Below, in pieces: positions 31,990 through 41,773 of a stretch of 64,000 nt of DNA. The stretch lies in the NCBI RefSeq assembly GCF_003334765.1, contig NZ_QOWT01000012.1, one strand, 5' to 3'. Under the pieces are notes generated by a model that did not search any database, had not been told where the DNA came from, and worked only from the letters and a program-made list of their open reading frames with translations. The position numbers were made by a program, and so were the translations under genes. The DNA is from Escherichia coli. Lineage in GTDB: Bacteria > Pseudomonadota > Gammaproteobacteria > Enterobacterales > Enterobacteriaceae. How positions within the stretch are numbered: position 1 is the first letter of the stretch; each line of letters starts with the position of its first letter.

Positions 31990-32961
31990 TTACTTAGCTG
32001 CCTGAATATCAGCCAGCATTGGGGCAAGGGCTGGGTTGTCCTTAGCGAAGTTTGCGTACATTGGCTGTACTTTCTCGATAAACGGAGCTTTATCTACCTG
32101 GTAGACTTTCACGCCCATTTTATCCAGTTTTGCAAATTCTTGTTTCTCTTCCTCGCTCCACAAGTCTTTCATGTAGCTCATTGATTCTTTAGCTGCTTTT
32201 AATATAACTGCCTGATTTTCCTGGCTAAGTTTATCAAACGCAGCATTGCTCATCAGAACCACATCGGGAACCATAGTGTGTTCGTCAAGGCTGAAGGATT
32301 TTGCCACTTCACCGTGACGCATGGTAGTCAGCGCCATCACGCTGTTTTCTGCCATATCGACCACACCCTGCTGTAAGGCTGTATACAACTCGCCGTAATC
32401 CAGTGGCGTCGGGTTACCGCCCATGACTTTGATCATTTCAACTGCGCCAGGGCTTGGCTGGACACGGACTTTCATGCCTTTCAGATCGTCTGGTTTCAGT
32501 ACTGGTTTATTGCCATAGAAACTGCGGGCGCCTCCATCATAAAAAGTCAGCCCGAAATAACCTTTGCTTTTCGTTGAGTCGAGGATTTTTCTCCCGATAT
32601 CGCCCTGCATGACCTGATAATAATGATCACGATCGCGGAACAAATAAGGCAGGCTAAATAATTTATAGGAATTTTCAAATGCTTCCATTTCTGCCGCATT
32701 GGTTTTTACCAGGGGAATAGCGCCAGAACGAATCAGCTCCATTGTTTCTCGTTGAGTACCCAATGTTCCATTTGGATAAATACGAATAGTAATATCACCG
32801 TTAGAGTACTCTTTGCTCTTTTTCGCAAAGAACTCCATCGCTTTATGAACAGGATGAGACTTATCCTGATTATGACTCAGTTTTAATGTCACTGCCCAGG
32901 ACTGGCTTGCGGATAACATAAGAACAGCACCGATAATGCCAGCGGATACTTTTATTTTCAT
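31990..32961 (-). CDS. TRAP transporter periplasmic solute-binding protein (DctP family)
   Basis: 323-aa ORF with signal peptide MKIKVSAGIIGAVLMLSASQSWA; AAGGA ribosome-binding site; last gene of the island operon. Confidence 0.82.
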   Translation of the reverse strand: MKIKVSAGIIGAVLMLSASQSWAVTLKLSHNQDKSHPVHKAMEFFAKKSKEYSNGDITIRIYPNGTLGTQRETMELIRSGAIPLVKTNAAEMEAFENSYKLFSLPYLFRDRDHYYQVMQGDIGRKILDSTKSKGYFGLTFYDGGARSFYGNKPVLKPDDLKGMKVRVQPSPGAVEMIKVMGGNPTPLDYGELYTALQQGVVDMAENSVMALTTMRHGEVAKSFSLDEHTMVPDVVLMSNAAFDKLSQENQAVILKAAKESMSYMKDLWSEEEKQEFAKLDKMGVKVYQVDKAPFIEKVQPMYANFAKDNPALAPMLADIQAAK

Positions 32962-33013
32962 AGATGTTCCTTTTCTAATAAATATGGCGGCAGGTGCCGC
33001 CAGTGAATGCGCA

Positions 33014-34315
33014 TCAGTAGCCCAGTGCTCTTGGCAATGCCATACTGATTTGCGGAATATAGGTCACCATTGCCAGCACCAATACCATCACGGCATAGAA
33101 TGGCAGCATAGGTTTGATAATTTTATTAATCGGTAATTTAGATACACTACAACCGACAAATAACACACTGCCTACAGGCGGAGTACAAATACCGATACAC
33201 ATGTTCAGTACCATGACAATACCAAAGTGAATCGGGTCCATGCCCAGTTCGGTGACAACCGGTAAAAATATCGGCGTAAAAATCAGTACCGCCGGTGTCA
33301 TATCCATAAAAGTGCCGATAATCAACAGGATAATATTGATAATAAGCAGGATTATTATTGGGTTGTCAGAAATAGTGTTAAGCAAATCGAGAATCAGGAA
33401 GGGAACGTCAGCGTTTGACATTGCCCATGACATACCCATCGAAGAACCAATTAATAACAAGACAATTGCAGTGGTAATAACGGATTCCAGAAATATTTTA
33501 GGTAAATCTTTAACTGAGATTTCACGATAAAGAACCAGTGCAAGGAAAAGGGTATAAATTACTGCAATTGCGGAGGCCTCTGTCGGGGTAAAAATACCAC
33601 TTAATACACCCCCCATAATTAAAATAATCAGGAAAATACTGGGGATAGCCATCCATATCGCAACGCCAGCCTGGCGTAAAGTCGGGCGTTCTGGCTTTGG
33701 ATAACCGCGACGTACCGCGATAATACCGGCTATTACCATCAGTGCCAGACCCAGCAAAATTCCCGGAACATAACCCGCCAGGAACAGTGCGGCAATAGAA
33801 GTACCACCACTGACCAGTGAATAGACGATTAACGTATTACTTGGTGGAATAAGCAAACCCGTCGGGGCAGAGGCAACGTTAACCGCAGTACTGAATGCCG
33901 GGTCGTAACCCTCTTTAACCTGTTGCGGATGCATGACGCCGCCCATCGCAGCCGCCGAAGCCACGGCTGAACCAGAAATTGCCCCGAACAGCATATTGGC
34001 GAGAATATTACAGTGGGCAAGTGAGCCTGGCAGACGACCGCCGAGAATACGGGCAAAGTTGATTAATCGTCGCGCTATTCCTCCATGGTTCATAATGTTG
34101 CCAGACAAGATAAAAAATGGGATTGCCAACAACGTAAAACTATCTAACCCGGAGGCTAACTTTTGGGAAACCACACTCAATGCTGAGTTGAAATCGAGTT
34201 GTGTGGAAATTGATGCCAGTGTCGATAAACCAATGGCATAAACAATAGGTACACCTAATGCCAACATAAAAAAGAAGGCACCAAATAACACAATAATCGG
34301 TAACCAGTAATCCAT
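33014..34315 (-). CDS. TRAP transporter large permease (DctM family)
   Basis: 433-aa polytopic hydrophobic ORF; GGAG ribosome-binding site upstream. Confidence 0.82.
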   Translation of the reverse strand: MDYWLPIIVLFGAFFFMLALGVPIVYAIGLSTLASISTQLDFNSALSVVSQKLASGLDSFTLLAIPFFILSGNIMNHGGIARRLINFARILGGRLPGSLAHCNILANMLFGAISGSAVASAAAMGGVMHPQQVKEGYDPAFSTAVNVASAPTGLLIPPSNTLIVYSLVSGGTSIAALFLAGYVPGILLGLALMVIAGIIAVRRGYPKPERPTLRQAGVAIWMAIPSIFLIILIMGGVLSGIFTPTEASAIAVIYTLFLALVLYREISVKDLPKIFLESVITTAIVLLLIGSSMGMSWAMSNADVPFLILDLLNTISDNPIIILLIINIILLIIGTFMDMTPAVLIFTPIFLPVVTELGMDPIHFGIVMVLNMCIGICTPPVGSVLFVGCSVSKLPINKIIKPMLPFYAVMVLVLAMVTYIPQISMALPRALGY

Positions 34316-34357
34316 AATTTCTCCATTCCTACTATGGTTGGTTGTTGTTTGTTATCT

Positions 34358-40112: not shown

Positions 40113-40121
40113 GATTCAGCC

Positions 40122-40913
40122 TCAGAAGCGCGGCATACTTAAGCCGCCGTCGATGGCGACCGCCTGACCACAGGTGTAAATCAGTTTACCTTCCGCCATC
40201 GCGCGGACAGTGGAAGCAATATCAGCCGGATAACCCCAACGTCCCCACGGCACCAGACCTTTGGCAATCAGTTCGTCGTAATAAGCCGTTGCCGGAATAG
40301 TCATATCAGTTTTGATGAGACCTGGGCGCACTTCATAAACGCCAATTTGTTCATTACAAAGGCGAGCTGCAAATAGACGAGCAGCGGCAGAAACGGCGGT
40401 TTTGGCAATGGTGTATTCGCCGCGATTCATCGCCAGCATGATGGCGTTGATGGAACTGACGAAAATAATCGAGCGGTGCGGCAGTTCCGCTTCCGGTTTC
40501 GGCTGTGCCAGTAAACGCTTACTGAATGCCTGAGCAAGGAAGAACGGCGCGCGGGTGTTAATGGCAATGTTTTGATCGAAGCTGTCTGGTTCGAGGTCGA
40601 GGAGGTCACCGCGTTTTTTCACTGAAATGCCTGCGTTGTTGAGCAGGCAGTCCAGACGTCCCCACAGGTTTTGCGCCGCGTCGAGCATCTCTTCATGCAA
40701 GGAGAGATCGCCGACATCGGCAGGGAAGCAAATCACTTCCACGCCTTCAGCTATACATTCTTGTTGTGTGATATGCAGTTTTTCTACGCTGTCGGCATCG
40801 GGAAGATCGTTAATCAGCAGGTTAAATCCGCCACGAGCAAGCTCCAGCGCACAGCCCTTTCCAATACCACGAGCGGCTCCGGTAATCACGGCAACAGGAC
40901 GAGTGGATTTCAT
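40122..40913 (-). CDS. Short-chain dehydrogenase/reductase (SDR)
   Basis: ORF track 40122..40955 begins at a TTG; ATG at 40913 gives MKSTRPVAVITGAARGIGKG (TGxxxGIG), NNAG motif and YTIAK (YxxxK); 263 aa; first gene of the operon. Confidence 0.82.
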   Translation of the reverse strand: MKSTRPVAVITGAARGIGKGCALELARGGFNLLINDLPDADSVEKLHITQQECIAEGVEVICFPADVGDLSLHEEMLDAAQNLWGRLDCLLNNAGISVKKRGDLLDLEPDSFDQNIAINTRAPFFLAQAFSKRLLAQPKPEAELPHRSIIFVSSINAIMLAMNRGEYTIAKTAVSAAARLFAARLCNEQIGVYEVRPGLIKTDMTIPATAYYDELIAKGLVPWGRWGYPADIASTVRAMAEGKLIYTCGQAVAIDGGLSMPRF

Positions 40914-41125
40914 ACAATAGCTCTCTTTTTTTGAATATTGTTTTCTAAGTGACAATTAGCTTGCGACGTGCCGCAAGAAAGATCAACCATCTGGTTGGTT
41001 GATATGCGATAGTGATCACAGGACATTTGATAACTTGATGAAAGTACAAGTTTTTATCCTTTTTACTGGAGCTTCTAATTAATCGGGTTAAGATAGTTAT
41101 CTTGAAGAGGTCGTGGGGAAGCGTT
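40914..41125. promoter_or_regulatory. Divergent promoter/operator region between the island operon and its TetR regulator
   Basis: 212-bp AT-rich spacer containing inverted repeats ATCAACCA-N6-TGGTTGAT (40982-41003) and TTGCG-N6-CGCAA (40961-40976). Confidence 0.6.
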
Positions 41126-41773
41126 ATGTATCTTGATACCAGCAACGTACAGAGCCTGAAGGAAAAGCTGCTGTTATGCGCGGTTAATGAATTTGCCGAA
41201 TATGGTTATGAAGGGGCCAGGGTCGATAATATTGTTAAGGCTGCGGGGTGTAGTAAACAGACGGTTTATCATCACTTTGGTAATAAAGAAAATTTATTTA
41301 TTGAAGTACTGGAATATACCTGGAACGATATTCGACAAAAAGAAAAGGCCCTTGATTTCTCAGATCTTCCGCCACAAAAAGCCATTGAGAAAATTATTGA
41401 TTTTACATGGGATTATTATATTGCTAATCCCTGGTTTTTAAAAATTGTGCATAGTGAAAATCAAAGTAAAGGTGTGCATTATGCAAAATCACAGCGTCTC
41501 TTAGAAATTAACCATGCGCACTTGCAGTTAATGGAATCCTTATTGGATGAAGGGAAGAAACACAATATTTTTAAGCCAGATATCGACCCATTGCAGGTGA
41601 ATATTAATATTGCTGCGCTTGGCGGATATTATTTGATCAACCAGCATACGCTTGGCCTGGTTTATCATATCAGTATGGTTTCCCCCCAGGCACTGGAAGC
41701 CAGACGTAAGGTCATCAAAGAGACAATCCTTAGCTGGCTTTTGGTTGACCCTTCATCTACCGCGCACGAATAA
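41126..41773 (+). CDS. TetR/AcrR-family transcriptional regulator
   Basis: ORF track 41102..41773 begins at a TTG; ATG at 41126 after GGGGAAG gives [58 protein letters not shown] (TetR N-terminal helix-turn-helix); 215 aa. Confidence 0.85.

Follow-up and report, generated by a model that had tools for sequence, protein, structure and literature searches.

The stretch of DNA analysed here, called the window below, is 64 kb of the Escherichia coli chromosome (contig NZ_QOWT01000012.1). It is 99.98% identical to strain H3 and has the gene order nnr/tsaE, hfq, purA, ula operon, rpsF-priB-rpsR-rplI, ytfB, fklB, cycA, tamAB and ytfQ. Between rplI and ytfB lies an island of nine genes, eight on the minus strand and one, for a TetR/AcrR-family regulator, on the plus strand. 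The rpsF-priB-rpsR-rplI genes are followed by a symmetrical terminator at 31900..31933 (hairpin 31900-31926), for which the terminator scan gave a 12-bp stem and a T tract. Next to it, all on the minus strand, are the genes of a tripartite ATP-independent periplasmic (TRAP) transporter, namely dctP (31990..32961) for a substrate-binding protein of 323 aa, dctM (33014..34315) for a large permease of 433 aa and dctQ (34358..34834) for a small permease of 158 aa. Then come, also on the minus strand, the genes for a flavoprotein resembling fumarate reductase and L-aspartate oxidase, a flavin adenine dinucleotide (FAD) protein (C-terminal tail, residues 614-693, 34855..35097; body, residues 1-613, 35098..36936), a fused family-I coenzyme A (CoA)-transferase of 513 aa (36933..38474), an enoyl-CoA hydratase/isomerase family protein (38484..39260), a xylose-isomerase-like TIM-barrel protein (39270..40112) and a short-chain dehydrogenase/reductase (SDR; 40122..40913), which would be the first gene of an operon. 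An AT-rich divergent control region (40914..41125, GC 0.373) separates the SDR gene from the TetR gene (41126..41773, plus strand, 215 aa). The 3' end of the TetR gene overlaps that of the flanking core gene ytfB (41757..42395, minus strand, GC 0.553) by 17 bp.

DctP matched TIGR00787 with 246.5 bits (cut-off 175) and NF037995 with 251 bits (cut-off 50). It was also matched by 69 solved TRAP binding proteins at E<1e-20, and its nearest solved relatives are TRAP binding proteins. DctM matched TIGR00786 with 458 bits (cut-off 268), while DctQ gave only a weak match to YiaM (36 bits) and carries the RefSeq name TRAP small permease. Taken together, dctP and the adjacent dctM and dctQ are predicted to encode a DctP-type TRAP transporter. 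The flavoprotein matched FAD_binding_2 flavoproteins in NCBIfam and the PDB, all far under the family cut-offs (best NCBIfam score 126 bits against a cut-off of 718), and the annotation of the cluster contains no genes for Fe-S or membrane-anchor subunits. We rejected a role as a subunit of fumarate reductase or succinate dehydrogenase because of the low score and the missing partner genes; the flavoprotein shares only the FAD_binding_2 fold family with these enzymes. The CoA-transferase had FadX-like and PcaI/PcaJ-like NCBIfam matches under the cut-offs, the TIM-barrel protein matched the uncharacterised structures 3ju2 and 3qc0 strongly (E about 1e-84), and the SDR matched NF009386 with 417 bits (cut-off 250). 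Thirteen NCBIfam TetR-family models matched residues ~8-110 of the regulator, all under their equivalog cut-offs. An N-terminal TetR-type helix-turn-helix (HTH) domain is present, and orthologues of the regulator carry PF00440 and PF17938.

The first-pass annotation of the island, made by eye, had described the TRAP and TetR genes as AT-richer than the flanking core genes, and the CoA-transferase and flavoprotein genes as close to average. The remaining 54 annotated genes of the window served as the reference ("core"); they had a GC content of 0.524±0.036 and a GC content at third codon positions (GC3) of 0.569±0.063. The corresponding values were 0.447 and 0.457 for DctP, 0.446 and 0.442 for DctM, 0.414 and 0.395 for DctQ, and 0.397 and 0.397 for TetR. 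The enzyme genes were near the core in both measures (flavoprotein, whole gene, 0.524 and 0.503; CoA-transferase 0.532 and 0.539; enoyl-CoA hydratase 0.505 and 0.537; TIM-barrel protein 0.550 and 0.566; SDR 0.534 and 0.534). Pooled GC3 was 0.439 for TRAP, 0.397 for TetR, 0.539 for the enzymes and 0.584 for the core (chi-square, TRAP versus enzymes p=8e-7, TetR versus enzymes p=1e-4, TRAP versus core p=1e-17). Stretches of the size of the low-GC transporter block defined below (3165 bp) never reached its GC of 0.435 outside the island, their minimum being 0.458, and only 0.5% of TetR-sized stretches outside the island matched the low value of TetR. The island is thus non-uniform, with GC change-points at ~35154, 40907 and 41682, and both parts of the by-eye description are confirmed; the AT-richness is statistically solid. 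The long A/T runs reported for DctM, DctQ and TetR turned out to be a modest enrichment. Homopolymers of at least 5 nt occurred at 7.7 per kb in TetR, 6.3 in DctQ, 4.1 in DctP and 3.8 in DctM (core 2.5±2.5), and the longest run in the AT-rich island genes was 5-6 nt. A second low-GC patch of the window is yjfI-yjfM (15454-18346), where yjfI has GC 0.389 and GC3 0.409, and yjfL, with GC 0.440, has the window maximum of 15 A/T runs of at least 5 nt per kb.

The codon adaptation index (CAI), which had been proposed as a further check, did not separate the groups. It was computed in two ways, with Sharp-Li weights and with the ribosomal protein genes of the window as reference. The Sharp-Li values were 0.37 for DctP, 0.25 for DctM, 0.18 for DctQ, 0.26 for TetR and 0.28-0.38 for the enzymes. 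Against a core of 0.38±0.13 (minimum 0.22), only DctQ fell below the core range and was the lowest in the window. CAI is no useful test here, because it cannot tell TRAP and TetR from weakly expressed core genes. It is extremely improbable that the low GC is an artefact of hydrophobic, T-rich membrane-protein codons and of a small regulator rich in lysine and asparagine: although the protein sequences alone predict a low GC for TetR (0.462) and DctP (0.489), GC3 in TRAP and TetR lies 0.12 to 0.22 under the expectation from amino-acid sequence and core codon usage (enzymes 0.03 to 0.09 under), four other membrane-protein genes of the window (ulaA, cycA, ytfF and paeA) have GC3 of 0.63-0.69, and the periplasmic DctP and the soluble flavoprotein tail are both AT-rich. 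We ruled this explanation out on these grounds; since the third positions are below the protein-based expectation, the effect is synonymous and real.

The compositional boundary on the transporter side does not fall at the border between dctQ and the flavoprotein gene but inside the latter. The last 242 bp of the flavoprotein gene (34855-35096) have GC 0.397 and GC3 of 0.29, compared with a GC of 0.540 in the remainder. We compared this island with other E. coli loci, for which 5,426 complete genomes were searched for the state of the locus. In one state the locus carries the TRAP genes, the enzymes and TetR, as in the window. In a second state a transporter of the major facilitator superfamily (MFS) stands beside the same enzymes and TetR, and some of these loci also have yjfZ or a HipA-type module adjacent to rplI. 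In a third, that of K-12, yjfZ and a truncated TetR gene are found. Homology between TRAP-type and MFS-type loci stops at 31931, directly past the rplI terminator hairpin, and that with MFS-type and K-12-type loci together ends within 31931-31939. The terminator is the left edge of the variable region, since it is the last sequence common to all locus types. At the other side, the TRAP-type and MFS-type flavoproteins (693 and 690 aa) agree at ~100% of positions as far as residue ~613 (...GGGSRGARI), after which identity drops to about 50% for the remaining 80 residues. Both limits of homology define an exchanged unit of 31932-35096, which takes in the three TRAP genes and ~80 codons at the 3' end of the flavoprotein gene, and this unit coincides with the low-GC block.

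Across the genus Escherichia, flavoprotein bodies share 91-99% identity. Three lineages can be told apart among the tails; they are 39-52% identical to one another and pair with the transporter: a TRAP tail, an MFS tail A and an MFS tail B, the last in Escherichia sp. MOD1. The TRAP cassette was carried by 1444 of the 5,426 E. coli genomes (26.6%), among others in E. coli HS, and the MFS cassette by 1671 (30.8%), about 2311 (~43%) having neither; the full island was present in 1451. When the window was compared with two E. coli strains (L096 and L097), the cassette was 99.1-99.4% identical, while the enzyme genes were 95.3% and 98.6% and the flanks 92-98% identical. The cassette occurs at 99% identity or more in 1431 E. 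coli genomes, and a near-invariant cassette in such differing backgrounds suggests that one cassette allele may have spread recently.

The RefSeq annotation of the island contains no insertion sequence (IS) elements and no integrase or transposase genes, and flanking direct repeats were looked for and not found. The Rfam search found no RNA family in the island, no dedicated tRNA scan having been run. With IS, integrase, flanking repeats and Rfam families all missing from the island, a mobile-element mechanism was ruled out. Elsewhere in the window, Rfam matches above the gathering score were at 30357-30441, 50240-50362, 53714-53771, 53851-53893 and 62877-62955 (RpsF leader, ES239, STnc450, ES036 and naRNA4). 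Secondary insertions of IS1, IS5 or ISKpn26 have disrupted TRAP genes or the TetR gene of some E. coli strains, suggesting that the island is still decaying in certain lineages. What lies between rplI and the transporter differs among loci: yjfZ (DUF2686, GC 0.42) in a part of the strains (L003 2781-4542), a pair of an HTH gene and a frameshifted HipA toxin gene in B2-type loci (L002 2450-3244), and an EamA-family transporter gene in Klebsiella huaxiensis and two enteric assemblies, L094 and L095 (L089 11030-11956). Inside the cassette, the dctM-dctP spacer has a GC-rich hairpin with a T-rich tail (33002-32985, minus strand), which might adjust how strongly the binding protein is expressed compared with the permease.

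Like the window, K-12 has sequences of the island between rplI and ytfB. K-12 keeps a 102-bp relic of the SDR gene (81% identity, window 40723-40824) and the 3' 400 bp of the TetR gene, at 3409-3917 of the K-12 locus (L004). The pseudogene ytfA of K-12, which the annotation calls a partial TetR/AcrR gene, corresponds to the 3' end of the island TetR gene, with 99-100% identity from window position 41371 to 41773. The K-12 locus is a doubly deleted remnant of an island of the yjfZ and MFS type; two deletions have removed the transporter and all enzymes, in contrast to the intact TRAP-type island of the window.

The second AT-rich block behaves differently. The TetR gene is at the end of the island opposite the transporter, 5.8 kb of sequence lying between the two AT-rich blocks, and it is present with TRAP as well as MFS cassettes, with a remnant in K-12. 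A scan of species-representative genomes with the flavoprotein gave 320 relatives. The identity of TetR to the E. coli protein is in line with that of the enzymes: 89% versus 82-92% in Klebsiella, 81% versus 78-88% in Entomohabitans and 84% versus 79-88% in L094. The 17-bp tail-to-tail overlap of TetR and ytfB has identical architecture in E. coli, K. huaxiensis, L094 and L095, which indicates that these islands probably go back to one ancestral insertion. In the TetR-SDR spacer, the best-conserved element over eight hosts, including Escherichia, K. huaxiensis, Entomohabitans and the two enteric assemblies, is the palindrome ATCAACCA-N6-TGGTTGAT at 40982-41003, also present in our hairpin list. 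It is plausible as a candidate TetR operator.

TetR is the AT-richest gene of the cluster in all examined hosts save Brenneria, where GC3 is equal. Its GC is below that of the adjoining enzymes in every examined lineage, including the Yersinia, Mangrovibacter, Martelella and Rhodocyclaceae clusters. In E. coli there is a second deep allele of the tract comprising the intergenic region, TetR and ytfB (~40850-42300), with 70-85% nucleotide identity to the window in strains L096 and L097. In the search with the TetR-ytfB tract, 353 of the 5,426 genomes had their best match in the 60-80% identity band. In both deep alleles TetR is AT-rich (0.39-0.40) and ytfB GC-normal (0.54-0.55), so the composition follows the gene and not the recombination tract. 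In the inspected strains with the divergent allele, ytfB is annotated as 'LysM-like peptidoglycan-binding domain-containing protein', and identity is back to ~100% at 42300. Further on, a 100-bp patch of cycA (~43900-43999) is 71-84% identical in several strains and species, with surroundings at 93-100%; this may represent a short mosaic stretch, or the alignment may be at fault there.

The genealogy of the TRAP module differs from that of the enzymes. In a Rhodocyclaceae metagenome-assembled genome (L091), the whole cluster is found at an unrelated site. Its transporter proteins are close to those of E. coli (DctP 75.5%, DctM 85.5% and DctQ 66-72% identity), while its enzymes are only 40-63% and its TetR 39-41% identical. 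In K. huaxiensis the order is the opposite, DctP being 81% identical, below most of the enzymes (82-92%); the gene at the dctQ position there is 76-79% identical to E. coli DctQ and carries PF04290. This reversal implies that transporter and enzymes have different genealogies.

The first-pass annotation had proposed that the transporter and the regulator came from a source other than that of the enzymes. For the transporter, its replacement by MFS and the discordant identities in L091 support this; for the regulator they do not, as TetR tracks the enzymes and accompanies both cassette types. In its joint form, in which one AT-rich donor supplied both TRAP and TetR and a donor of average GC the enzymes to which they were joined, the proposal is very improbable. 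The two share similarly low GC and GC3, and both blocks are bounded by GC change-points. However, they lie at opposite ends of the island, and TetR occurs unchanged with the MFS cassette and, as a remnant, in K-12. Across genera the identity of TetR follows the enzymes and that of TRAP does not, and in L091 the TRAP proteins are 66-86% identical to those of E. coli while TetR is so distant.

The low-GC genes are not recent arrivals, their synonymous divergence between E. coli and Klebsiella being at least that of the flanking core genes. Between E. coli and K. huaxiensis, synonymous divergence (dS) was 0.8-1.1 for ula genes, 1.1-2.2 for the enzymes and 2.4 for TetR, and was saturated for TRAP; the proportion of differing synonymous sites (pS) of TetR and TRAP between hosts was 0.72-0.76. 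Between E. coli and a divergent Escherichia (L008), TRAP dS was 0.33-0.49, similar to the flanks (0.2-0.4). GC3 of flanks or core, enzymes, TRAP and TetR, in this order, was 0.58, 0.54, 0.44 and 0.40 in E. coli, 0.65, 0.62-0.71, 0.44-0.52 and 0.46 in K. huaxiensis, and 0.77, 0.76-0.79, 0.60-0.71 and 0.58 in L094. Over four hosts, enzyme GC3 follows the host, and TRAP and TetR lag by 0.1-0.3.

These data bear on a further alternative, in which the island has one source and its composition reflects gene-specific equilibria (expression, protein make-up, H-NS, or mutation and selection) and carries no signal of origin. In four hosts of differing GC3 the order is unchanged, with the enzymes close to the host value, TRAP lower and TetR lowest. 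With synonymous sites saturated between hosts, the GC3 of TetR and TRAP is no simple relic. The two deep TetR alleles are both AT-rich beside ytfB alleles that are both GC-normal, and polarised changes in the intergenic region and TetR were balanced (56 GC>AT versus 54 AT>GC), like the few changes in TRAP (9 versus 7 and 11 versus 13). As a test of amelioration, the polarised changes are only suggestive, those in TRAP being too few and those in TetR reflecting deep alleles and not evolution in situ. In the enzyme genes (35097-40913), unlike the flanks, TetR and TRAP, GC>AT changes strongly exceeded AT>GC changes relative to L096 and L097 with L008 as outgroup (141 versus 82 and 50 versus 14). 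This excess on shallow E. coli branches may be due to segregating mutations or parsimony error.

A single source nevertheless leaves unexplained why TRAP and MFS replace each other at breakpoints that coincide with the GC step, and why the identities in L091 are discordant. TRAP and the enzymes also stand in one tight same-strand array, which makes a difference in expression level an unlikely cause of the GC gap between them. In L091 and Cohaesibacter, moreover, TRAP GC3 equals enzyme GC3. We therefore consider this alternative improbable.

The AT-rich offset itself is long-lived, and H-NS-related selection is one candidate for what keeps it. A table from genomic SELEX (systematic evolution of ligands by exponential enrichment; PMC3946193) includes the remnant yjfZ-ytfA spacer of K-12 among the H-NS sites. 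A reading in which the AT-richness of the uptake genes and of the TetR and control region is actively maintained and functional, as a conserved regulatory architecture and not a foreign scar, draws on this listing, on the GC3 offset in four hosts, on the AT-richness of both TetR alleles and on the balanced changes. One possibility is that the AT-rich blocks serve as H-NS nucleation platforms that silence the accessory operon until induction. As in H-NS xenogeneic silencing, the island has AT-rich blocks (GC 0.37-0.44) at its regulatory and uptake ends; the K-12 sequence flagged in the table, however, is mostly absent from this window. We regard active maintenance as doubtful.

We consider it likely that the rplI-ytfB interval is an old accessory catabolic island made of three units with different evolutionary behaviour. 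The first unit would be an enzyme core (SDR, TIM-barrel protein, enoyl-CoA hydratase, CoA-transferase and flavoprotein residues 1-613), whose composition tracks the host genome. The second would be a transporter cassette beside rplI, either TRAP DctPQM or a sugar-acid-type MFS transporter, each joined to a distinct flavoprotein end of ~80 residues. Homologous recombination between conserved flanking sequences would exchange the cassettes; one crossover would fall directly behind the rplI terminator and the second immediately after the GGGSRGAR motif of the flavoprotein, and the AT-rich TRAP module would have a history apart from the enzymes. The third unit, TetR with the AT-rich divergent control region, was probably part of the island when it was inserted beside ytfB and would have stayed with the enzymes across genera, so that its AT-richness would be a long-standing property of the gene and not a mark of separate import.

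The minus-strand genes from SDR to dctP are spaced by -4 to 52 bp, and the arrangement suggests a single operon under a TetR repressor, which would act by binding the palindrome. TRAP binding proteins recognise carboxylates. The alternative MFS transporter belongs to the D-galactonate/ACS (anion:cation) sugar-acid subfamily, and the nearest large group of DctP relatives lies in hexuronate/glucuronide clusters; in Yersinia-type clusters a Gfo/Idh/MocA dehydrogenase takes the place of the CoA enzymes. Our best guess for the substrate, drawn only from transporter families and neighbouring genes, is an acidic sugar-like or cyclitol-like compound (a cyclitol or sugar carboxylate) with CoA-dependent degradation. 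The operon would import this compound and degrade it via CoA thioesters, the TRAP and MFS cassettes being interchangeable importers.

Several points weigh against an island of three such units. The island occurs at the same rplI-ytfB site as the MFS type in E. whittamii, Escherichia sp. MOD1 and Entomohabitans, and as the TRAP type in K. huaxiensis, L094 and L095. With TRAP-type islands at the shared site in other enterics, neither type can be called ancestral, and any separate origin is placed deep in the past; we dropped the view that MFS was ancestral and TRAP derived for this reason. The donor of the TRAP cassette was not found, and beyond the syntenic enterobacterial loci and L091 its nearest relatives reach only 53-61% identity and are found in clusters unrelated to the island. 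Since the flavoprotein tail changes quickly in every lineage (23-59% identity between lineages), the drop at residue 613 is partly due to weak constraint and not to a crossover alone. The deep TetR-ytfB alleles imply that co-inheritance of TetR and the enzymes is not strict within the E. coli population. Finally, no published description of the cluster turned up in literature searches based on PDB codes, locus tags, protein accessions and chemistry.

Candidates for the donor or for donor markers were also rejected. The DctP family at 53-61% is mostly from Vibrio, Photobacterium and Psychromonas, and we treat these Vibrionaceae as relatives and not donors. The single Vibrionaceae context inspected (L092, Vibrio maritimus) is a hexuronate/glucuronide cluster without the flavoprotein, and the same is true of a second TRAP locus of E. 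coli. The flavoprotein tail was uninformative as a donor marker, being fast everywhere and only 31-36% identical to the L091 tail. A DctP at 86% labelled 'E. coli' (P0006) was left aside; its locus abounds in broken genes, which are probably due to errors in the assembly. The second TRAP system of E. coli is carried by many B2 strains (L088, from E. coli ST131) between ftsP and ygiQ. Its dctP has a 150-bp stretch ~80% identical to the island dctP, and its neighbours are Ldh-family, zinc alcohol dehydrogenase and mannitol-dehydrogenase genes and a GntR regulator, the same set as beside the relative in L092.

Sialic acid is taken up by TRAP SiaPQM, MFS NanT or ABC (ATP-binding cassette) systems in different bacteria, a case of non-orthologous transporter displacement. 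Like that system, the island combines one catabolic enzyme set with transporters of unrelated families, DctP-type TRAP and MFS. Unlike it, the two forms of the island segregate within one species at the same site (27% and 31%), and the exchanged block ends inside an enzyme gene, so that each transporter comes with its own flavoprotein C-terminus. YiaMNO, the 2,3-diketo-L-gulonate TRAP transporter of E. coli K-12, has the same DctP, DctQ and DctM architecture as the island transporter. However, the two are not orthologous (island DctM 290 bits against a YiaN cut-off of 800, DctQ 36 against a YiaM cut-off of 260), and the YiaMNO locus and partner enzymes are different.

In the model of Lawrence and Ochman, acquired islands are recognised by atypical GC and codon usage and ameliorate gradually. 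Like such islands, the one described here is accessory, polymorphic for presence and absence, and has AT-rich parts between conserved core genes. It differs from them in that no integrase, IS or flanking repeat was found and no tRNA site was seen (without a dedicated tRNA scan), and in that its AT-rich parts are old, with dS saturated between genera, and stay under the GC3 of the host in all four hosts compared. Such a persistent GC3 offset is not what simple amelioration would lead one to expect. Mosaic accessory loci and transporter displacement are well known, and the island is unsurprising in kind; this instance appears to be undescribed and unusually well resolved.

The by-eye impression of composition placed a recombination cassette to within about 60 bp of its breakpoint, and the same cue was misleading for the regulator gene, which advises caution when foreign origin is deduced from GC. 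AT-rich orthologues that stay AT-rich despite saturated sites offer a small, clean data set on gene-specific determinants of GC3. About 57% of complete E. coli genomes have a predicted, uncharacterised CoA-dependent catabolic operon between rplI and ytfB, and the K-12 pseudogene ytfA would be its last trace. The TRAP/MFS dimorphism would be a natural experiment in which a high-affinity binding-protein system and a proton symporter serve one pathway in one species.

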